In this document: in pieces, positions 9,407-58,274 of the stretch
How positions within the stretch are numbered: position 1 is the first letter of the stretch
Layout: each line of letters opens with the position of its first letter
Virus record (IMG/VR): IMGVR_UViG_3300005805_000076
Coordinates: 7,929 to 71,928 of that record
Length of the DNA: 64,000 nt
Strand: one strand, 5' to 3'
Origin: a virus
Lineage: Duplodnaviria; Caudoviricetes
Made by a program: the position numbers and the translations under genes
Notes under the pieces: model-generated
Seen by the model: only the letters and a program-made list of their open reading frames with translations
What the model was told of the DNA's origin: nothing
The model's database searches: none

Positions 9407-10240
9407 ATGGATTATTATCAAGCATTGAACGTTGACAAAACTGCTAGTCAAGAAGATATCAAAAAAGCATATAGACGCCTAGCATCTAAACATCATCCAG
9501 ATAAAGGTGGTGATACTAAAAAATTTCAAGAAATCCAAACAGCTTATGATGTGTTAAGCGATCCGGCCAAACGTCAACAATACGATAACGGTGGGGCACA
9601 ACAATTTAACTTTAATCCAGGTAATTTTGGTGGACATGATATTAACGATATTTTTAGACAGTTTGGATTTCATTTTGGTGGGGGACCTGACCCATTTGCG
9701 GGATTTCGAAATCAAAGGAAAAATAAGGATCTGAGAATAGAAATTACGTTGAATTTAGCTGAAACATTAAATGATCAAACTAAAATACTAAACATCAAAA
9801 CTACGACAGGCACAAACGAAAATGTCAATTTAACTATTCCGCGTGGTGTTACTCAGGGCGCTAGTATCAAATATAGCGGTTTGGGAGATAACATGTTTAC
9901 CAACCTGCCTCGCGGTGATCTTTACATACATTTTAATATTAGGAACGACCCAAACTTTATTGTACAAGGTTTGGATTTAATTAAACAGTTGACTATAGAC
10001 TGCTTTGACGCTATATTAGGTTGTAGACAGGAAATAACTGGATTAGATGGCAAGGTGTTTGCGGTGCAGGTTCCGGCTGGTTGCCAACAAGGTATGAAGC
10101 TTAAAATTCCAGGCGAAGGACTATATGGATTTCAGAAAGATATTAAAGGTAATCTGTATATTTTAATGAATATATCTATTCCCACAAATTTAAACACAGA
10201 AGATTTAGAATTAGTTAGGACTTTGGCTAATAAAGGTTAA
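9407..10240 (+). CDS. dnaJ: DnaJ/CbpA-type chaperone without zinc finger
   Basis: DYYQAL, HPDKGG J-domain, G/F-rich linker, PRGDLY C-terminal domain. Confidence 0.92.
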
Positions 10241-46270: not shown

Positions 46271-47278
46271 ATGCGCTATTTGATTGTTGATTTAACTAAT
46301 TCATATTTTAGGGCACGCCATGCTGCACATCGTGGCACGTCAACCGAAGAAAAGGTTGCCTTTGCAATTCACGTCACGCTAAGTAGCATCAACAAAGCAT
46401 GGCGAGATCAAAAAGGTGATCATGTAGTTATTTGTCTTGAAGGACGCAGTTGGCGTAAGGATTACTACAAACCTTATAAGGCTAACCGTGCTGAGGCTAG
46501 AGCTGCTTTAAATGTTAAAGAAGCTGAAGAAGATCGCATGTTTTGGCAGGGGTTAGATGATCTTAAGGTATTTCTGCAGGAAAAATCTAACTGCACAGTA
46601 TTGCAACATCCTGAATTAGAAGCTGATGATTTAATTGCTGGGTGGATACAATATCATACCAAAGATCATCATACTATTATCAGCAGTGACAGTGATTTCC
46701 ATCAACTGTTAGCAGAGAATGTTAATCAATATAATGGAGTAGCGGACGAGCTGCATACCATTAATGGCATTTACGATGGCAAGGGTAAACCTGTTATCGA
46801 CAAGAAAACAAAAGAACCCAAAAAGATTCCGGACCCCGCTTGGATTTTGTTTGAAAAGATTGTGCGCGGCGATCCCACCGATAACGTGTTCAGTGCATTT
46901 CCTGGTGCGCGGGTCAAAAGCAGCAGAAGTAAAGTTGGATTGACAGAAGCTTTTGCGGATCGAGACAAGCAAGGTTATGCATGGAATAATTTTATGTTAC
47001 AGCGTTGGACCGATCATCTTGACGTGGAGCATAAAGTATTAGATGATTATAACCGTAATAAGGTATTGATTGACCTTAGTGCTCAACCTGACCATATACG
47101 GGCTAAGATCAACGAGACTATAAAGAACTCCAGTGTGCCTAAAACTCAGCAACAAATTGGCATACATTTCCTGCGATTCTGCGGAAAATATGACCTTAAG
47201 AGGTTGGGTGATAGTGCAGATAAGTTTGCACAGTGGTTGCAATCTTCTTATCAAGAAAAAGAAATGAAAGCAGCATAA
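46271..47278 (+). CDS. 5'-3' exonuclease / T4 RNase H-like
   Basis: LIVDLTN, LEADD, ISSDSDFHQL, GDPTDNV. Confidence 0.88.
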   Translation: MRYLIVDLTNSYFRARHAAHRGTSTEEKVAFAIHVTLSSINKAWRDQKGDHVVICLEGRSWRKDYYKPYKANRAEARAALNVKEAEEDRMFWQGLDDLKVFLQEKSNCTVLQHPELEADDLIAGWIQYHTKDHHTIISSDSDFHQLLAENVNQYNGVADELHTINGIYDGKGKPVIDKKTKEPKKIPDPAWILFEKIVRGDPTDNVFSAFPGARVKSSRSKVGLTEAFADRDKQGYAWNNFMLQRWTDHLDVEHKVLDDYNRNKVLIDLSAQPDHIRAKINETIKNSSVPKTQQQIGIHFLRFCGKYDLKRLGDSADKFAQWLQSSYQEKEMKAA

Positions 47279-47299
47279 CATGAAAGTAACCTATCGCCT

Positions 47300-47752
47300 A
47301 TGATATTAACAGCAAAGCCAGTGGTAAAGAACAAGTTCTGGATTGTTGAGCAGGAAGGACAAAAGATCGCCACCATACAAGCAGTGGACAATGGTGGCTT
47401 TGTTTATGTCAACGACCAAGAACGCAAAGTGTATCCCAGCATCAAAATCCTAAGTAGAATTCATAATGTAGTTTTTGATCCAGCACTAACAGAAGACCAA
47501 ACGTCTACAGCAAAAACTTCAGCGTATGGATATCCTGTTGAGAAAAAGGCGTACAATATACTTTGGAATGTAAAGCATCAATTTCCTGTATTCACTAAAA
47601 GCAAAAAAAGCAAAAGTTTCCATTGTGCTGGTTGGTATAAAGTAAAGCTAAACGGGCAATGGGTTGAAACTTTTTGTCCTAAACTTATTACCTTAAATAG
47701 ATATGAATTTGTTGGTCCGTTTAAAGATCGACAAGAGCTTACTGGGATATAA
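47300..47752 (+). CDS. hypothetical protein
   Basis: 150-aa ORF. Confidence 0.65.
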   Translation: MILTAKPVVKNKFWIVEQEGQKIATIQAVDNGGFVYVNDQERKVYPSIKILSRIHNVVFDPALTEDQTSTAKTSAYGYPVEKKAYNILWNVKHQFPVFTKSKKSKSFHCAGWYKVKLNGQWVETFCPKLITLNRYEFVGPFKDRQELTGI

Positions 47753-47753
47753 T

Positions 47754-47984
47754 ATGGCCAAAGATTTATCTATACATCTTAAAATGTTTAACGATAAAGT
47801 TAAATTAATGAATCAAACTCATAGTAGAGATCTTACTCTTAGTGCACAAGAAGCTAGGAATCTGCATGCAGATTTGTTTGATTTGTTAAATCATTGTGCT
47901 ACATTAAGCAAGGAAACACAAAAAACCCCCAAAGACTCAATTGACGGGATCAATATAGCTATGGATGGCGGTAATTGGGACTAA
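47754..47984 (+). CDS. hypothetical protein
   Basis: ATG 47754 follows the upstream stop. Confidence 0.65.
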   Translation: MAKDLSIHLKMFNDKVKLMNQTHSRDLTLSAQEARNLHADLFDLLNHCATLSKETQKTPKDSIDGINIAMDGGNWD

Positions 47985-48032
47985 TCATAGCCTGTGGGTT
48001 ACAGTAGATAAATACTTGATATAGAGAAAATT

Positions 48033-48320
48033 ATGAGTAGGCCAAAACCTAATATATTGATTGAACACGTCAACAAAAGCAATTACCGTAGTGAGCAGAT
48101 TCTCAGCAGTGATGGCATCTGGGCGGTATTTTATCAAAATCAACCTATCAACTTAAAAAGTCAAAACATTTTGGTTAGTTACCCTGGACCAAAATATAAA
48201 AAGACATCCTTTGCAAATAAAGGTCATGCGGTTAATTTGGCTAAGAAACTAAATGCTCTATTCAAGACAGACCAATTCAGTGTGGTACTGTTAAAGAGCG
48301 GTGACAAAATCTATCCATAA
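48033..48320 (+). CDS. hypothetical protein
   Basis: 95 aa after TAAATA (48009). Confidence 0.7.
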   Translation: MSRPKPNILIEHVNKSNYRSEQILSSDGIWAVFYQNQPINLKSQNILVSYPGPKYKKTSFANKGHAVNLAKKLNALFKTDQFSVVLLKSGDKIYP

Positions 48321-48672
48321 AAAGTATAAGCAGAGTCAGCTTGTCAAAATCTTTGCTGCTCAACTTGGTAGCCACATAGATCAAAACCTACGCTACAGAA
48401 TTTGGTATAACCCTACAGATGATAATAGCCTAAGATTAAGCTTAGAAGGCCTTAGGTTTGTTACACAAAATCTCAATCTAGAATTATTTGAATTTGAATT
48501 AGAACAACCACTTAAAAATAAAAATCTAATTCAATTGGAAAGATATTTTTCCGGTATGTATTATATCATGCCTAAAAAAATTATTGTGTTTGATGAGGAT
48601 GAAGCGACCATGTTATCCTTGCATAGCAATAACTTACCTGTATATTTGGATAGTCTCGAAAAAAACCTTTGA
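48301..48672 (+). CDS. hypothetical protein
   Basis: 123-aa ORF; start uncertain. Confidence 0.55.
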   Translation: MTKSIHKKYKQSQLVKIFAAQLGSHIDQNLRYRIWYNPTDDNSLRLSLEGLRFVTQNLNLELFEFELEQPLKNKNLIQLERYFSGMYYIMPKKIIVFDEDEATMLSLHSNNLPVYLDSLEKNL

Positions 48673-48697
48673 CTTATATTCCAAAATAAACTATAAT
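48669..48697 (+). promoter_or_regulatory. sigma70-type promoter
   Basis: TTGACT-17 nt-TATAAT. Confidence 0.7.
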
Positions 48698-48727
48698 TTC
48701 TATACTTTAACTTATAAAGAAAATATT

Positions 48728-49252
48728 ATGGCAAAAAAAGTAACCTATGTTATGGTGGATGTTGAAGCAGATGGCCCAGCACCTGGGCTTTACAGTATGA
48801 TTGAACTGGGTGCTGTTATAGTAGAACCCACGCTCAATAGAACCTTTTATACTAATCTTAAACCCATCAGTGACGAATATGTCTATGATGCGCTGGCAGT
48901 AACAGGACACAGCCGCGAAGAAACTATGAAGTTTAAGGATCCCTGCGATGCCATGTTGGAATTTGACCAATGGCTTAGCGAACAAATACCGAATGGTAAA
49001 ATTATCTTTGTTAGTGATAACAACGGTTTTGATTGGCAATTTGTGAATTATTATTTTCATAAATTTCTACTCAAAAATCCCTTTGGGCATAGCAGTATGA
49101 ATTTAGGTAGTCTATATAAGGGTATGCAAAAAAGTATGTTTGAAAATTTCAAACACCTACGTAAAACCAAACATACTCATAATCCTGTGGATGATGCAAA
49201 GGGCAATGCAGAAGCAATGTTAACCATTCTAGAAAACTTTAAAGGACAGTAA
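48728..49252 (+). CDS. DEDDh 3'-5' exonuclease
   Basis: VDVEADG, SDNNGFDW, HNPVDDA. Confidence 0.85.
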   Translation: MAKKVTYVMVDVEADGPAPGLYSMIELGAVIVEPTLNRTFYTNLKPISDEYVYDALAVTGHSREETMKFKDPCDAMLEFDQWLSEQIPNGKIIFVSDNNGFDWQFVNYYFHKFLLKNPFGHSSMNLGSLYKGMQKSMFENFKHLRKTKHTHNPVDDAKGNAEAMLTILENFKGQ

Positions 49253-49254
49253 AA

Positions 49255-49419
49255 ATGAAAAACGGATTTACACTTATTGAACTTCTCATTGTTCTCGCAA
49301 TTATTGGTATTTTGGGTAGTATTGTGTATGATGGTTATCAAAATCACATAAACGGTGGGGTCAACAGCGATCCTTCTCCCACAGATTCCAAAGTAGTACA
49401 GGATAAACCTGCCAAATAA
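49255..49419 (+). CDS. 54-aa type IV prepilin-like protein (absent from ORF track)
   Basis: MKNG|FTLIELLIVLAIIGILGSIV class III signal with Glu+5. Confidence 0.8.
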   Translation: MKNGFTLIELLIVLAIIGILGSIVYDGYQNHINGGVNSDPSPTDSKVVQDKPAK

Positions 49420-49427
49420 TCATTAAT

Positions 49428-49909
49428 AATCAATGACTTACAATGCCTAAATTTGGTTGACAAATAACACCAAAATCCGTATAATAGCTATATAGTTAAT
49501 AACAAGGAGCCTAAGATGCGATACGTGATTTTCAATAAGTCCACCACCCAACTGGTTCGTATCATGCGCAGCGGTCTCTGGCAGAACGCCGAGTATCAAA
49601 CTGAGGCAGCGGCTCGCGCAGGCTTCACTCGCTTGTGTAAGCTGGGCAAGATCAACCGCAAGAACTTTGCCATCCTGCCCTATGATGAATTTTGGAAGAT
49701 TGAAAAAACTGAGACCTGCATCAACTTGATGACGGGCAAATCCTTTACTCAACGGGTAAATACCCCGCGATGCTGTGATCCTTCCAGTGAACTTTACTGG
49801 AGCATGTGATTCCTCTAGTAGAATCAATGACTTACAACGCCTAAATTTTGGTTGACTTTTATTACCAAAACCTGTATAATAGCTGTATAGTTAATAACAA
49901 GGAGCCTAA
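49428..49909 (+). repeat. two copies of an ~87-nt early promoter/RBS cassette
   Basis: 49428-49514 and 49822-49909: AATCAATGACTTACAA..TTGAC(A/T)-17-TATAAT..AACAAGGAGCCTAA. Confidence 0.9.
49516..49809 (+). CDS. hypothetical early protein
   Basis: follows cassette copy 1. Confidence 0.75.
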   Translation: MRYVIFNKSTTQLVRIMRSGLWQNAEYQTEAAARAGFTRLCKLGKINRKNFAILPYDEFWKIEKTETCINLMTGKSFTQRVNTPRCCDPSSELYWSM

Positions 49910-49910
49910 A

Positions 49911-50189
49911 TTGAAAACTGTTCAAGAAATCAATACCGCAATTCTTAGCAGCAATCTTAGCAACGAAGATTTGAATTCCGTGCTGGATGCCGTGCGGTTT
50001 GTTCGCAGTCAGCTTGTTCGCAAAAACACCGGAAGCTTGGTTGTTGGTACCCGTGTTAAATGGAACAGCGTTCGTTTAGGTAAACCAATGACAGGCACTG
50101 TGGTCAAGGTTGGCCGCAAAAACATCAAGGTCGATGTTGGTCAGGGCAATGTGTGGCGTGTGGATGCCAGCATGCTGGAGCGTGTATAA
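49911..50189 (+). CDS. hypothetical early protein with SH3/KOW-like C-terminus (TTG start)
   Basis: follows cassette copy 2; VGTRVKW..TGTVVKVGRK. Confidence 0.7.
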   Translation: MKTVQEINTAILSSNLSNEDLNSVLDAVRFVRSQLVRKNTGSLVVGTRVKWNSVRLGKPMTGTVVKVGRKNIKVDVGQGNVWRVDASMLERV

Positions 50190-50368
50190 TGCAAAAATTG
50201 AACAATGCTCAAAATTTGGTGCTTAAGGATCTGCGCCGCATGAGCCAAAAAAAAGGTTTTGTGTATGCCGCAGACTGTCAACACTTTGACGGCCGCACCC
50301 TGCGCAGTCTACGAGACCGCGGACTGATTGAGTATCAAGACGCTCGCTATATTATGAAAGGCATCTAA
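50189..50368 (+). CDS. small winged-HTH-like protein
   Basis: TAATG coupling; RTLRSLRDRGLIEY. Confidence 0.5.
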   Translation: MQKLNNAQNLVLKDLRRMSQKKGFVYAADCQHFDGRTLRSLRDRGLIEYQDARYIMKGI

Positions 50369-50369
50369 C

Positions 50370-50537
50370 ATGGACGAATTCGATCAAGAAGATTCCGCTC
50401 AGCTGGATTGGGCACAATTGCTGAGAGAGATGCTGGCAATATCACAAGTTGGTTACGAACTGTCCGAGCAGGACACAAAAATGTATCTTGAAATGGACCA
50501 ACGTGCCACGCATGCTGCACCTGCAACCCTGCAATAA
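50370..50537 (+). CDS. hypothetical acidic protein (55 aa, absent from ORF track)
   Basis: MDEFDQEDSAQLDW...; fills the gap. Confidence 0.55.
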   Translation: MDEFDQEDSAQLDWAQLLREMLAISQVGYELSEQDTKMYLEMDQRATHAAPATLQ

Positions 50538-50541
50538 TTTG

Positions 50542-50570
50542 TTGACAATAAATCCAACCTGTTTTATAGT
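50542..50570 (+). promoter_or_regulatory. sigma70-type promoter
   Basis: TTGACA-17 nt-TATAGT; AGGAG RBS. Confidence 0.7.
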
Positions 50571-50609
50571 TATATCGTAGTTTAATTTTTATTTAGGAGA
50601 GAAAGAGAG

Positions 50610-51713
50610 ATGTCTAAAGTAACTGAAACTCGCACTATTACTTCCAAAACTGCGCACCGCACTATCATGAAATGCTTCAAGAAGAAGCGTCCGGTGTTTC
50701 TTTGGGGTCCGCCTGGCATTGGCAAGTCTGACCTCGTTGCAAGTATTGCCAAAGAAATGAATGGTTTGATGATTGACCTTCGTCTTGCGCAGATGGAGCC
50801 CACCGATCTTCGTGGTATTCCTTTCTATAATAAGGATATCAACAAGATGGACTGGGCCGCCCCTGTTGATCTTCCGGATGCTGAAACTGCAAAACAGTAT
50901 CCCGTGATTGTATTGTTTTTGGATGAGATGAACAGTGCACCTTCTTCCATCCAAGCCAGTGCATATCAACTTATTTTGAATCGCCGTATTGGCAAATACG
51001 TGCTGCCTGACAATGTAGTGATTGTGGCGGCAGGTAATCGCGAAAGCGATAAGGGTGTAACTTACCGCATGCCGGCTCCCTTGGCGAATCGTTTCATCCA
51101 TTTGGAAATGCGGGTGGATCACGAGTCGTGGGAAGATTGGGCAGTGCGCAATAGTGTCCATAAGGACGTGATTGGTTATATTGGTTTTGCTAAACAAGAC
51201 CTTTATGATTATGATCCGCGCAGCTCTAGCCGCAGTTTTGCGACCCCGCGTAGCTGGGTGTTCGTTTCCGAACTGCTGCAAGAAAATGATACCAGCGAAG
51301 AAGATTTGATTGAGCTGATTACTGGTGCAATTGGTGAAGGGCCTACTCTTAAGTTTATGGCTCATCGCAAGATTTCCAGTGACTTGCCTGATCCCCAAGA
51401 TATCCTTAGTGGCAAGGTCAAAGAGATTAAGATTAAAGAAATCTCTGCCATGTATTCGCTTTGCGTGAGCTTGTGCTACGAGCTCAAGGAAGAATTGGAG
51501 AAGCTGAACAATAAGGCCAATGAAGAATTCTTCAATAAGTTGAATAACTTTATTGAGTTCATCATGGGTAATATGACCACAGAGTTGATTGTTATGGGTG
51601 CTCGTATTGCAATTGTTACTTATGAACTGCCGGTTATCCCTGCTAAACTGCCTAAGTTTAAAGAGTTCCATCAACGGTTTGGCAAATATATCGTGGCTGC
51701 ATCCAAACGATAA
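50610..51713 (+). CDS. MoxR-type AAA+ ATPase
   Basis: WGPPGIGKS, FLDEMN, AAGNR, LANRF, TPRSW. Confidence 0.88.
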   Translation: MSKVTETRTITSKTAHRTIMKCFKKKRPVFLWGPPGIGKSDLVASIAKEMNGLMIDLRLAQMEPTDLRGIPFYNKDINKMDWAAPVDLPDAETAKQYPVIVLFLDEMNSAPSSIQASAYQLILNRRIGKYVLPDNVVIVAAGNRESDKGVTYRMPAPLANRFIHLEMRVDHESWEDWAVRNSVHKDVIGYIGFAKQDLYDYDPRSSSRSFATPRSWVFVSELLQENDTSEEDLIELITGAIGEGPTLKFMAHRKISSDLPDPQDILSGKVKEIKIKEISAMYSLCVSLCYELKEELEKLNNKANEEFFNKLNNFIEFIMGNMTTELIVMGARIAIVTYELPVIPAKLPKFKEFHQRFGKYIVAASKR

Positions 51714-54236: not shown

Positions 54237-54528
54237 TTTAAATAGTAAAATTGTATGGCGTAACATAGTAAAAGATGTCGACAAAAAAGAAGTTCCAATT
54301 CATGTACTACAAAAATTAATTGTAAATCTAAAAGATGGCACCGTTGTTGAAATTGATATTAAAGAAATTTTAACAAATGGTGCTGATCCTGATGATATTG
54401 AAGAACATGTGAATCAACGTTTACATGACCTTCAACAATACATCGAAAATGTGGACTTCTTCGTTGACATAGAAAAAGTTGAAAATACTATTCAACCTAT
54501 CACAGATAAAATTCTAGCAAACTTATGA
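54190..54528 (+). CDS. hypothetical protein
   Basis: ATG 54190 with AGGAG upstream. Confidence 0.65.
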   Translation: MAKKQGPRKAKPKKLNLNSKIVWRNIVKDVDKKEVPIHVLQKLIVNLKDGTVVEIDIKEILTNGADPDDIEEHVNQRLHDLQQYIENVDFFVDIEKVENTIQPITDKILANL

Positions 54529-55022
54529 TCAAATCAATCTTCGCTGTGGATCCTTGGGGCGGCATGGGATACAAGGGATCGTTACCTTGGCCACATTGCA
54601 CTGAAGACCTACAGCATTTCAAAAACCTGACAGATGGACAAATAGTTATAATGGGTCGTAAAACTTATGATGACCCAAAAATGCCTAAACCTTTACCAAA
54701 TAGAACTACCTATGTAATTACACATCGCCCAATTAAGGGCGTTTTTACAATTCAAGGTGATATTGAGCAACGTGTTAGAGAGATAGCACTTACTAACCGT
54801 CGCAGAACTATTTGGGTTATTGGTGGTCCAGATATATTAATGACTCTTAAAAATATTACCTCAGAAGCCTATATTACACATTTTAGAGGACAATATCGAA
54901 CAGATGTCCAGATTGATCTTCGTAAATATCTAAACGTGTTCCAAGCTAGAAGCGCCAAATCACATCCAGATTATGTCTGTAACTGGATGACATATAAAAA
55001 TATAGACATTTTTAAATCTTAA
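54525..55022 (+). CDS. folA: dihydrofolate reductase
   Basis: LPWPH..EDL.HFK, IMGRKTY, KPLPNR, VIGG. Confidence 0.92.
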   Translation: MIKSIFAVDPWGGMGYKGSLPWPHCTEDLQHFKNLTDGQIVIMGRKTYDDPKMPKPLPNRTTYVITHRPIKGVFTIQGDIEQRVREIALTNRRRTIWVIGGPDILMTLKNITSEAYITHFRGQYRTDVQIDLRKYLNVFQARSAKSHPDYVCNWMTYKNIDIFKS

Positions 55023-55031
55023 CTATATAAT
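55003..55031 (+). promoter_or_regulatory. sigma70-type promoter, 6 nt before the thyA ATG
   Basis: TAGACA-17 nt-TATAAT. Confidence 0.55.
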
Positions 55032-55037
55032 TACCAT

Positions 55038-55949
55038 ATGGAAAAAGCTTATTTAGACGCATTAAAATTTGTGTTGGATAACGGTGTAAGGCGCGATGAT
55101 AGAACAGGCGTTGGTACCATTTCTGTATTTGGTATGCAACAACGCTATGATTTGAGATTAGGATTTCCCGCGATTACAACCAAAAAACTAGCATGGCGTG
55201 CCTGTGTGGGAGAATTGCTATGGTTTATTGAAGGTAGTAGCGATGAACGTAGACTAGCAGAAATAACTCATGGCACACGCGAAGGAGTCTCTACTATTTG
55301 GACCCCAAATGCTGAAGCGGGATATTGGAAATCAAAAGCTAAATTTACTGGTGATTTGGGTAGAGTGTATGGCGTACAGTGGCGTTACTGGAAAAAATAT
55401 ATAAAAGAACCAGTCTATAACTGGATAGACTTCTATCAAAGCTTGTGGACTGATACCGATAAAATTAAAGAAACAGAAATAGATCAATTGCAAGAGTTGA
55501 TCGCAGGAATTAAAAAAGATCCATACGGCAGAAGGCATATACTTAGTAGTTGGAATGTTGCTGAACTGGATATGATGGCTTTACCTCCCTGTCATTGTTT
55601 TGCACAATTTTATGTGGCCAATGGCAAACTAAGCTGTCAAATGTATCAAAGAAGCTGCGATATGTTTTTAGGAGTACCGTTTAATATTGCTAGTTATAGC
55701 CTATTAACCCACATGATTGCGCAAGTGTGCGATCTTGGTGTAGGTGAGTTTGTTCATACATTGGGTGATGCTCACATTTATCTTAATCACATTGACCAAG
55801 TGAAACAACAATTAAAACGTAAACCATATGCTAGCCCACAATTGAAGCTTAATCCTGATATCAAAGATATTACCGCCTTTACTATGCAGGACATTGAACT
55901 GATAGATTATAAATGTCACCCAGCATTAAAGGCTGAGATGGCCGTATAA
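55038..55949 (+). CDS. thyA: thymidylate synthase
   Basis: DRTGVGT, GRVYGVQWR, MALPPCH, QRSCDMFLGVPFNIASY. Confidence 0.96.
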   Translation: MEKAYLDALKFVLDNGVRRDDRTGVGTISVFGMQQRYDLRLGFPAITTKKLAWRACVGELLWFIEGSSDERRLAEITHGTREGVSTIWTPNAEAGYWKSKAKFTGDLGRVYGVQWRYWKKYIKEPVYNWIDFYQSLWTDTDKIKETEIDQLQELIAGIKKDPYGRRHILSSWNVAELDMMALPPCHCFAQFYVANGKLSCQMYQRSCDMFLGVPFNIASYSLLTHMIAQVCDLGVGEFVHTLGDAHIYLNHIDQVKQQLKRKPYASPQLKLNPDIKDITAFTMQDIELIDYKCHPALKAEMAV

Positions 55950-56185
55950 TGATTGTTGAGAGAGTATCCATAGGCGACAGTGATGATCCGTATGTTATTG
56001 CGGGGTTTGCTTTGTCTAATTGGAAGGATACTCCCAAAGGCAAATGGGTCTTTGAACATGCTATTGAACAACCAGTATTCCACTGCACTCCAAATGTTTT
56101 CACATATGGATATGATGCTGTGATTGGCGCAAAATTTACTGAAGAAGATAAAACAGTTTTTTTATTAAAATGGGGAATTAAATGA
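55949..56185 (+). CDS. hypothetical protein
   Basis: 78-aa coupled ORF. Confidence 0.65.
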   Translation: MIVERVSIGDSDDPYVIAGFALSNWKDTPKGKWVFEHAIEQPVFHCTPNVFTYGYDAVIGAKFTEEDKTVFLLKWGIK

Positions 56186-57153
56186 ATGTAATGGTAACCG
56201 GTGGTCTTGGTTTTATTGGACACAATGTTGTTAAATTTTTAGAACAAGAAAATCATCATGTCAGTATTATAGATAATAAAACAAACTACGGGTTTATCTC
56301 AAAAGAAGAATTAGATTATCTTATTAGCGAACGTAGGAAGAAAATAAAAACTGGCGTATTTGGTATAGATATTAGACAAACTGACGCTGTTGATTACGCA
56401 TTTAGAACCACTAAACCTGAAGTAGTGATTCACTGTGCTAGTTTTCCTAGACAGAAGATTGTAAGTATAAATCCATCGCTAGGTAGTGAGGTAATGTGTA
56501 CGGGATTAATAAATCTATTAGAAGCAGCCGTTAAACATGGCGTAAGACGTTTCCTTTATGTAAGCAGTAGTATGGTTTATGGAGATTTTGATAACGATGT
56601 TGCTGAATATGCACCATGTAAACCTATAGGCCAATACGGTATAATGAAATATATGGGAGAAAAATTAGTAGAGGATTATCATCGTAGAACTGGATTAGAA
56701 TTTGTGATAATTAGACCCAGTGCTGTGTATGGTGAATTAGATGTTGAAGATCGTGTTGTCAGTAAATTTATGATGGCAGCTATGCGAGGCGAAACTTTAA
56801 CTGTTAAAGGTTCTAATGAAATATTAGACTTTACTTACGTAGAAGATGCTGCTATGGGAATAACTCTAGCTGCTCTGCATGAAAAAAGCAAAAATAATAT
56901 CTATAATATAACAAGAAGTGATAGGAAATTATATACTTTGAAAGATGCTGCTGAACTAGCAATATCTATAGCTGGCAAAGGTAGTTATGAAATACAGGAC
57001 AAAGATGCTAGCTTTCCATCCAGAGGTAGATTGTGTATTGATAAAGCGGTGCATGATTTTAGTTATATGCCTCAAGTGTCGGTTGAAGAAGGATTCCGGC
57101 GCTATCATACTTGGTTCCGTCACAGTGCTTATTGGTCAGAAAAATTGAAATGA
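56182..57153 (+). CDS. NAD-dependent sugar epimerase/dehydratase
   Basis: TGGLGFIG, SSSMVYG, YGIMK (YxxxK). Confidence 0.92.
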   Translation: MNVMVTGGLGFIGHNVVKFLEQENHHVSIIDNKTNYGFISKEELDYLISERRKKIKTGVFGIDIRQTDAVDYAFRTTKPEVVIHCASFPRQKIVSINPSLGSEVMCTGLINLLEAAVKHGVRRFLYVSSSMVYGDFDNDVAEYAPCKPIGQYGIMKYMGEKLVEDYHRRTGLEFVIIRPSAVYGELDVEDRVVSKFMMAAMRGETLTVKGSNEILDFTYVEDAAMGITLAALHEKSKNNIYNITRSDRKLYTLKDAAELAISIAGKGSYEIQDKDASFPSRGRLCIDKAVHDFSYMPQVSVEEGFRRYHTWFRHSAYWSEKLK

Positions 57154-58274
57154 TTCCTTTTTTTGGATTAGATAGACAGTATGCTGAGCTAAGAGAGGAA
57201 ATACTGGATGTCACAGATCAAGTATTAAAAAGCGGCAAGGTGTTGCAAGGACTACACGTAGATATATTTGAAAAAGCTATAGCCGCACGTTGTAAAAGAA
57301 AGTTTGCTGTAGCTGTAAACAGTGGCACACAAGCATTAATCTTTGCACAAACATTTCTAAATCAGGGTGCTGACCATAAAATTCTTATCCCAAATGTAAG
57401 TTACATAGCAACCCTAAACAGTGTTTTATTAAGTAATAATACTCCAGTGTTCTGCGATGTTGATTACCAAGGTCAAATTGATTTAGAAAGCTTACCCTAT
57501 AAATTCAACGAGTACGATATCAAAGGAATTATGTATGTGAATTTATTTGGTAATATGGTAGATTATGAAAAGCTTACTGTTATAAGTAAATTTTTTAATG
57601 ATGTTGATTATATAATTGAGGATGCTGCACAAAGTTTTGGTGCCAGCTATAAAAATCAACCCAGCGGTAGTTTTGGCGACATCAGTATTCTAAGTTTTGA
57701 CCCAACAAAGAACTTACCTAATTACGGCAGTGGCGGTATGCTGTTGACTGATAACTTTCAAGCCTATGAATTCTTCTTAGACATGAGACACAACGGTGTT
57801 TATAGTGGAAATGCTATATCAGGAACTAACAGCAAAATGAGCGAAACTGATTGTGCTCAAATGTTGATAAAATTAAGACATTTTGATAAGTGGCAACAAC
57901 GCCGCAGCAAAATTGCCGCATACTATATGCAGGAATTGTATTCACTTATAGATTTTGAAACAATATGCATACAAACCGTAGAACCTAACTTAGATGTTAA
58001 ACATGCTTGGCATAAATTTGTAATAAGATCAACCAACAGGAATTTGCTGCAATCATTCTTAACTAGTAAAAATATTGAAACTAAATGTCACTATTATATG
58101 CCGCTAAGTGATCATGAAGTCGCTAACAGTTATTATCAACATGATCTCCCATATTCATCTCAATTTTGTAATCAGTGTCTAAGTCTGCCAATTTATCCTG
58201 AACTAACTGACAGTGAAGTTCAACATATAGTAGATGCTATGAAATTATTTCATCGACGACGTAAGAACTTTTAA
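57150..58274 (+). CDS. DegT/DnrJ/EryC1/StrS PLP aminotransferase
   Basis: NSGTQAL, IEDAAQSFG, SFDPTKNL..GGM. Confidence 0.92.
   Translation: MIPFFGLDRQYAELREEILDVTDQVLKSGKVLQGLHVDIFEKAIAARCKRKFAVAVNSGTQALIFAQTFLNQGADHKILIPNVSYIATLNSVLLSNNTPVFCDVDYQGQIDLESLPYKFNEYDIKGIMYVNLFGNMVDYEKLTVISKFFNDVDYIIEDAAQSFGASYKNQPSGSFGDISILSFDPTKNLPNYGSGGMLLTDNFQAYEFFLDMRHNGVYSGNAISGTNSKMSETDCAQMLIKLRHFDKWQQRRSKIAAYYMQELYSLIDFETICIQTVEPNLDVKHAWHKFVIRSTNRNLLQSFLTSKNIETKCHYYMPLSDHEVANSYYQHDLPYSSQFCNQCLSLPIYPELTDSEVQHIVDAMKLFHRRRKNF

Follow-up and report, generated by a model that had tools for sequence, protein, structure and literature searches.

A 54-aa headless type IVa pilin-like gene in the early region of an uncultured PA5oct-like phage, with a possible role in pilus interference

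The Mini-Pilin Gene and Its Prepilin Signal

The 64 kb stretch of viral DNA analyzed here (hereafter the window) corresponds to bases 7929-71928 of a 71.9 kb IMG/VR record, to which CheckV assigns a completeness of 21%. At positions 49255..49419 on its plus strand lies an ORF for a 54-aa headless mini-pilin, characterized through the ORF itself, HMM scores, AlphaFold2 (AF2) prediction, conservation, and matches in the PDB. According to the translation of this ORF, the product starts as MKNG|FTLIELLIVLAIIGILGSIVYDGY and ends in the polar tail QNHINGGVNSDPSPTDSKVVQDKPAK. The leader is short and basic (MKN-G), and the residues characteristic of the signal (Gly-1, Phe+1, and Glu+5) are followed by a hydrophobic helix of ~20 residues. 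Cleavage would be expected between G4 and F5, giving a predicted mature form of 50 aa.

The sequence-only reading had proposed a 54-aa ORF with a G|FTLIE prepilin motif at this position, and profile searches confirmed it, with scores far above the cut-offs for both the Pfam N_methyl model PF07963 (37 bits against a cut-off of 21.2, E 2e-9) and TIGR02532 (40.2 bits against 16.3). A six-frame search of the entire 71.9 kb record found the mini-pilin to be the sole prepilin site (38.8 bits, E 7e-11). A Shine-Dalgarno-like AAGGA, read from the sequence at 49242..49246 (plus strand), stands 8 nt ahead of the ATG, which in turn lies 3 nt past the stop codon of an upstream exonuclease gene (TAA, 49250-49252). 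Because this stop adjoins the mini-pilin start, translation of the mini-pilin is likely coupled to that of the exonuclease gene. The GC content of the ORF is 0.370, compared to 0.374 for the phage. A chance ORF is ruled out by the HMM scores, the ribosome-binding site (RBS), and the conserved homologs described below; 49255..49419 is a real phage gene with a bona fide prepilin (class III) signal. The description of the gene as unannotated needs qualification, as a 70%-identical homolog has already been named [quoted passage not shown] by JGI.

Homologs and Predicted Structure

Two 54-aa homologs, with 78% and 70% identity, were found in a search of 5.8 billion proteins, and a third of 55 aa, with 56% identity, was recovered by a profile search of 1.8 billion representatives. 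All four short members stop at the same point, and their length stays constant down to 56% identity with reading frames intact. They share G-1, F1, E5, Y24-Q25-N26, and the tail pattern GVNxDPSPxxSxVVxDxP. In a broader alignment of 14 mini-pilins, G-1, F+1, and E+5 are invariant. The 54-aa homologs were not among the matches of a metagenome scan, and the ESM Atlas gave weak leads alone, namely short N_methyl clusters at a score of 0.87.

AF2, run with a three-sequence alignment, predicted one helix at residues 7-35 (pLDDT 83-94 in the core). Neither the sequence nor the AF2 model of the 54-aa product contains a head domain, a cysteine, or a D-region. The proposal of a pilin N-terminus lacking the globular head is thus borne out by the presence of Gly-1, Phe+1, and Glu+5 and by the single predicted helix, while the accompanying term “mimic” is slightly off, as the protein is genuinely homologous to the pilin alpha1 helix and not a look-alike. 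Truncation of a longer gene by a nonsense stop is ruled out: past 49419 all three frames are closed, nothing left over from a head or Cys loop is present, a promoter follows directly, and the homologs share the same end point.

In mature numbering, the mini-pilin retains F1, E5, G14, and Y24-Q25-N26, with His at position 27. At position 22, where type IVa pilins typically have a helix-breaking Pro, the mini-pilin has Asp; all four short members (4/4) carry Asp or Ser here, while the longer aligned mini-pilins retain Pro22. Judging from the alignment, this loss may impair normal incorporation into a filament. Beyond the helix, the tail of ~20 aa is polar and contains the conserved motif VV(Q/P)D(K/R)P, the conservation of which hints at a function beyond that of a bare helix. 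In two longer mini-pilins, P0057 (84 aa) and P0088 (88 aa), VV(Q/P)DxP occurs at the same position and is followed by a Cys hairpin. Because of this positional match, the 54-aa group looks like the P0057/P0088 architecture minus the hairpin.

Resemblance to Type IVa Major Pilins

A search of all PDB chains returned 13 matches at E<=0.01, every one of them a type IVa major pilin, including Geopilin domain 1 (the best, at 27.9 bits), EHEC PpdD, PAK PilA, and Neisseria PilE. No pseudopilin, minor pilin, or ComGC was among the matches at this threshold. Judged by such comparisons, the N-terminus of the mini-pilin resembles type IVa major pilins only. The resemblance does not extend to the full length of these proteins: full-length pilin equivalog models (NCBIfam) scored far below their cut-offs on the mini-pilin, and the canonical PilA/PilE head with a C-terminal disulfide-bonded D-region is absent from it. 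The G|xxxxEY motif of Flp (type IVc) pilins is likewise absent, the motif here being G|FTLIE, and no Flp family appeared among the Pfam and NCBIfam matches. An attempt to derive the host from the mini-pilin N-terminus failed, with matches spanning Elusimicrobia, CPR, Proteobacteria, Planctomycetes, and others.

Genomic Neighborhood and Early Promoters

The genes neighboring the mini-pilin encode FEN/RNase H, a DEDD exonuclease, a MoxR-type ATPase, a VWA protein, a DNA polymerase, an ATP-dependent protease, ThyA, and DHFR. The 71.9 kb record is rated 21% complete and its neighboring genes fit a jumbo phage, which suggests that the carrier is a jumbo phage of about 340 kb. On the record, which covers ~21% of the genome, we found no integrase, no prepilin peptidase (Peptidase_A24), and no pilus ATPase (T2SSE); phage-encoded pilus partners are possible in the remainder. 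Elsewhere in the window, at 54525-58274, the genes for DHFR and thymidylate synthase precede those for two sugar-nucleotide enzymes, an NAD-dependent sugar epimerase/dehydratase and a DegT/DnrJ-type aminotransferase, which may relate to DNA hypermodification or to surface glycans.

Immediately upstream of the mini-pilin, at 48728..49252 (plus strand), is the gene of a DEDD/RNase T-type 3'-5' exonuclease, 174 aa from the ATG at 48728 (PF00929, 38.9 bits; PF16473, 38 bits; phrog_192), homologs of which occur at 57 loci in large viral contigs. A near-consensus sigma-70-type promoter, TTGACT-17-TATAAT at 48669..48697 (plus strand), precedes the exonuclease and the mini-pilin and is likely the promoter of this two-gene unit. 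Just 3' of the mini-pilin, at 49428..49515 (plus strand), is an early-promoter cassette, an 88-bp repeat that contains a perfect TTGACA-17-TATAAT at 49457-49485 and an RBS. A second copy at about 49822-49909 is 89% identical over 88 bp, with its promoter at 49852. From its position, the cassette at 49428..49515 is read as driving a 97-aa ORF and as marking the 3' boundary of the mini-pilin unit. The promoters at 48669, 49457, and 49852 account for three of the six perfect TTGAC-N18-TATAAT sites in the 64 kb, where 0.06 would be expected. No stem-loop or terminator part was found at the promoter cassettes. With promoters of this type, the mini-pilin is most likely transcribed early by the host RNA polymerase, and their placement around the gene would fit a role in host takeover or exclusion.

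More widely, repeated cassettes consisting of TTGAC(A/T)-17-TATAAT, AGCTATATAGTTAATAACAAGGAGCCTAA, and a start codon are seen at 48640-48730, 49428-49518, 49823-49913, and 50513-50612. They bound one- or two-gene units, as well as an insertion relative to the closest relative (L072, see below). The listed start of a 113-aa ORF at 49848-50189 lies within one such cassette; alignment with L072 suggests that its true start is the TTG at 49911 (MKTVQEINTAIL..., 92 aa). This ORF has a weak ProQ C-terminal-like match (E 0.02-0.04).

Distribution among Relatives of the Phage

The nearest cultured relatives of the window's phage are the Pseudomonas jumbo phages of the PA5oct group, with 49.6% identity in the ATPase. 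Positions 46271-51713 show the same gene order as PA5oct (MK797984.1, 227441-235193; L284), with queE, RNase H/FEN, small ORFs, and the MoxR-type ATPase in succession. By sequence comparison, we place the window's phage as a distant Arenbergviridae-like relative of PA5oct. PA5oct-type relatives are lytic, and the carrier, seen through a record that is ~21% complete, is apparently a virulent jumbo phage.

No prepilin-motif ORF is present in the entire 286.8 kb of PA5oct, and none was found in the flanks of 57 exonuclease-anchored and 52 ATPase-anchored loci (about 109 altogether). In the closest relative, L072 (ATPase identity 73%), homologs of the 95-aa, 123-aa, and 113-aa ORFs directly follow one another, and a ~1.2 kb block at 48673..49910 (plus strand), composed of [promoter-exonuclease-mini-pilin] and [promoter-97-aa ORF], is missing. 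The mini-pilin is best described, from these comparisons, as accessory and as part of a hyperplastic early region. It would be dispensable, because PA5oct and about 109 related loci do without it, and a conserved syntenic core gene of the phage group is ruled out by the same ~109 loci, PA5oct, and L072. A functional link to the downstream 97-aa ORF was also considered, as a weak homolog of this ORF lies near the mini-pilin of another jumbo phage (L003, see below), and was ruled out, as the ORF is common in relatives that have no mini-pilin.

The arrangement of the block recalls the PeSLs of T4-type phages, mobile early-promoter cassettes that flank small novel ORFs inserted into hyperplastic regions (Arbiol et al. 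2010, PMC2839356; Comeau et al. 2014, PMC4122927). Like PeSLs, the 88-bp promoter repeat bounds the mini-pilin block that is missing in L072. Unlike with PeSLs, however, no stem-loop part was seen, and the phage is PA5oct-like rather than T4-type. The likeness concerns the vehicle of the gene, not its function.

Mini-Pilins in Other Phages

A search for similar mini-pilins in phages had been proposed along with the original observation, and when run here, it showed that orphan short ORFs with a pilin signal recur in unrelated phages, with 10 of 11 viral cases <=85 aa. The query patterns matched 11 viral loci, and the ORFs at 10 of these are 63-85 aa long, mostly with a short Cys-bounded hairpin. 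Two of the genomes, of 350 kb and 50 kb, are complete (with terminal repeats), and each contains exactly one orphan N_methyl ORF. Neither of these complete mini-pilin phages has an integrase above the cut-off, a prepilin peptidase, or a pilus ATPase. No homolog of the window's ATPase was found in the other mini-pilin carriers, i.e., they are phages unrelated to the window's.

Short forms are rare outside viruses. At 80 loci in reference genomes, pilin-signal ORFs have a median length of 168 aa; a length of <=90 aa is found for 1 of 135, and a length of <=60 aa for none. Among the ORFs at metagenome loci, about 6 of 154 fall within the <=90 aa limit. The short forms (<=90 aa) are enriched in viruses (Fisher p 1.4e-13 for 10/11 vs. 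1/135; 2.7e-11 vs. the metagenome), in a comparison of lengths that is not fully like for like, as the viral count takes the matched ORF only and the genomic and metagenome counts add neighboring pilin-signal ORFs. In PHROGs, several short families without an assigned function match the mini-pilin, with profile lengths of 59, 67, and 72. A tblastn search of cultured phages (INPHARED) with the mini-pilin, the 63-aa family described below, and P0057 returned nothing even at E 10, for which low-complexity masking is the probable cause.

Among the individual cases, a separate conserved family of 63-aa mini-pilins (MKNGFTLIELLI..AIAGIGCA...C...C, with three Cys) is present in six low-GC viral contigs (L007, L008, and L010-L013). 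In L010, the mini-pilin at 10001-10192 sits between genes for small membrane proteins, with an overlapping stop/start (ATGA). The complete 350 kb jumbo phage (L003; GC 55%) encodes at 9977-10234 a mini-pilin of ~81 aa, counted from MKKHNG|FTLIE. The linker of this protein reads GHDQPQ, a C...C hairpin is present, and the protein is very like P0057; the phage is unrelated to the window's. By its sequence, this case indicates horizontal spread or repeated capture of the mini-pilin architecture.

Comparison with Known Pilin-Like Proteins

Truncated pilins have already been described in phages. Sztanko et al. (Cell Rep 2026, PMC12952977) reported that six virulent Pseudomonas phages carry a PilA truncated to its N-terminal ~60 residues (“P-PilA”). 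They proposed, as a proposal only, that P-PilA is either incorporated into the pilus without phage-binding sites or inhibits assembly (PMC12952977). Both the class and the pilus-interference hypothesis are therefore already in print (PMC12952977), and the mini-pilin is a further member. Compared by description and not by sequence, the two are alike in being phage-encoded, in having ~60 residues or fewer, and in keeping the N-terminal helix of PilA only; they differ in that the mini-pilin belongs to an uncultured PA5oct-like jumbo phage, has a conserved tail rich in Pro and Asp, and lacks P22. The present case contributes a clean and conserved example, characterized by its distinctive tail, the absence of Pro22, and a clear context of early-promoter cassettes.

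A second phage-encoded pilus subunit, P-FimU of F10-like Pseudomonas prophages, excludes other phages once it is incorporated into the pilus (PMC12952977). The mini-pilin is likewise a phage-encoded protein of the pilus-subunit type with a class III signal. P-FimU, however, is a full-length minor pilin with a head that is expressed from a prophage, located at the pilus tip, and functional in twitching (PMC12952977). The mini-pilin, by contrast, is headless, resembles major pilins, and occurs in an apparently virulent jumbo phage.

Short pilins are also encoded by bacteria themselves, as in Geobacter, where PilA-N works with a PilA-C partner that is encoded alongside. PilA-N (Geopilin domain 1; PDB 9egp, 2m7g, 6vk9; 61-aa mature) is, like the mini-pilin, a short type IVa pilin with little beyond alpha1. 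The likeness is one of the helix only, as the mini-pilin, unlike the Geopilin pair, has no adjacent PilA-C: the next gene has its own promoter and encodes a 97-aa product with no signal sequence.

Possible Interference with Host Type IV Pili

Type IV pili (T4P) are major phage receptors, and they drive motility, adhesion, and DNA uptake. The explanation that we favor, with a confidence that falls a little short of even, is that the gene encodes a headless stub of a type IVa major pilin that is transcribed early by the host polymerase and lowers the amount of functional T4P, such that pilus-dependent phages are excluded. The gene would be transcribed early by the host RNA polymerase from the sigma-70-type promoter, together with the exonuclease gene, and the 54-aa product would insert into the inner membrane. 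A PilD-type prepilin peptidase of the host would then cut after Gly4 and methylate the Phe, and the processed stub would enter the membrane pool of pilin subunits. As the record (~21% of the genome) holds neither a peptidase nor a pilus motor, the stub would most likely act via host machinery. At the assembly platform, it could be expected to compete with the major pilin of the host, because the alpha1-N helix (F1, E5, G14) is kept but the head domain is absent, and it would then either be incorporated as a defective or bare subunit or stall assembly. The outcome would be fewer functional T4P on the infected cell, and the benefit would be that pilus-dependent phages, siblings included, are blocked from adsorbing to a cell that is already infected. 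In this scheme, the target would be T4P rather than the type II secretion system (T2SS), and the host is assumed to possess T4P. Because PA5oct requires LPS plus type IV pili (PMC6950013), a link to pili in the PA5oct-like phage group is plausible. Published work in favor of the scheme comprises the exclusion of phages by P-FimU, the occurrence of truncated P-PilA in virulent phages (PMC12952977), and the effect of a Caulobacter pilin-helix peptide on phage susceptibility, described below (PMC7196804). The enrichment of short forms in phages counts in its favor as well. If such stubs do poison or disguise pili, they would amount to inhibitors of type IV filament machines that evolved naturally and are minimal in size, at about 50 residues, and would represent a widespread device for phage-versus-phage exclusion in virulent and jumbo phages.

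The tail raises the question of whether the helix is the active part. The prepilin signal might serve for delivery or anchoring only, with the periplasmic tail (GVNxDPSPxxSxVVxDxP) as the functional element, binding some other envelope target such as the secretin, the peptidoglycan machinery, or another receptor. Conservation of the tail in four members, and the recurrence of VV(Q/P)DxP ahead of the Cys loop in 84-88-aa mini-pilins, are in line with such a role. However, conservation is weaker in the tail than in the helix (about 62% vs. 89% identity to the homolog P0002, counted from the alignment), AF2 predicts it to be disordered (pLDDT ~53), and it has no family match in Pfam, NCBIfam, or PHROGs. 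We regard an independent tail function as unlikely.

Interference might alternatively act on signaling rather than on the filament. The inner-membrane stub could be read by a PilS-PilR- or PleC-type kinase as a full pilin pool, with the result that pilin transcription is turned off or surface sensing and c-di-GMP are rewired, and the stub would not enter a filament at all. The conserved alpha1-N is kept in the mini-pilin, which is consistent with this reading. Kilmury and Burrows reportedly found in 2016 that C-terminally truncated pilins repress pilA through PilS, which counts in its favor. The loss of P22 would also fit a subunit that is not destined for assembly. In Caulobacter, a 17-aa pilin helix binds TM1 of PleC, impairs pilus function, and lowers phage susceptibility (PMC7196804); with this synthetic peptide, the PilA CIP, susceptibility to PhiCbK was down by 77% (Del Medico et al., PNAS 2020, PMC7196804). 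The CIP shares with the mini-pilin a bare pilin helix, which is enough in that organism to disturb pili and to reduce infection by a pilus phage, but it derives from the host's own type IVc (Flp-like) pilin with a different cleavage motif, works via PleC, and is not phage-encoded. A transcriptional route would, moreover, be slow for a lytic phage that is probably shutting down host transcription, and existing pilin pools would persist. We regard a signaling decoy as distinctly unlikely.

The gene could also be a neutral passenger or decaying remnant, a pilin fragment gained by recombination in a hyperplastic region and without a selected function. Its location in a variable insertion between repeated promoter cassettes and its absence from most relatives would be expected in that case. 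Against this, the start and RBS are intact, the four homologs are equal in length with no frame disruption, the GC content equals that of the phage, and orphan mini-pilins have turned up independently in complete genomes of unrelated phages; we consider a passenger to be very unlikely. Least probable of all, and highly so, is that the stub acts as a sink for the prepilin peptidase PilD or poisons the pseudopilus of the T2SS or of DNA uptake (competence) rather than T4P: the class III signal and the peptidase are common to all such systems, and NCBIfam N-terminal matches include GspH, GspG, and ComGC, but these matches are far below the cut-offs and confined to the N-terminus, Y24-Q25-N26 and all PDB matches point to type IVa major pilins, and titration of an enzyme requires very high expression.

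Within the favored view of a stub that lowers functional T4P, a simple “bare subunit” model accounts for neither the loss of Pro22 nor the conserved tail. A more specific, and quite improbable, version would accommodate both: the 54-55-aa proteins may be a specialized offshoot of a wider and hitherto undescribed phage mini-pilin family (alpha1, a VV(Q/P)DxP linker, and an optional Cys hairpin), turned by loss of the hairpin and of Pro22 into a non-extractable or non-assembling plug, the tail of which docks on a periplasmic part of the pilus machine. If this were true, such proteins would constitute a class of phage inhibitors dedicated to type IV filament machines and possessing a defined peptide pharmacophore.

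As a separate observation on the tail, the 1096-aa protein P0007 contains 13 Ig-like repeats, each ending in DSDPAATDSVVVNDKP, which resembles SDPSPTDSKVVQDKP in the tail of the mini-pilin. Homology was rejected at about 8 bits per repeat, the similarity being probably due to chance or composition; the likeness nevertheless hints at a tail that could fold as a short beta-strand with a linker.
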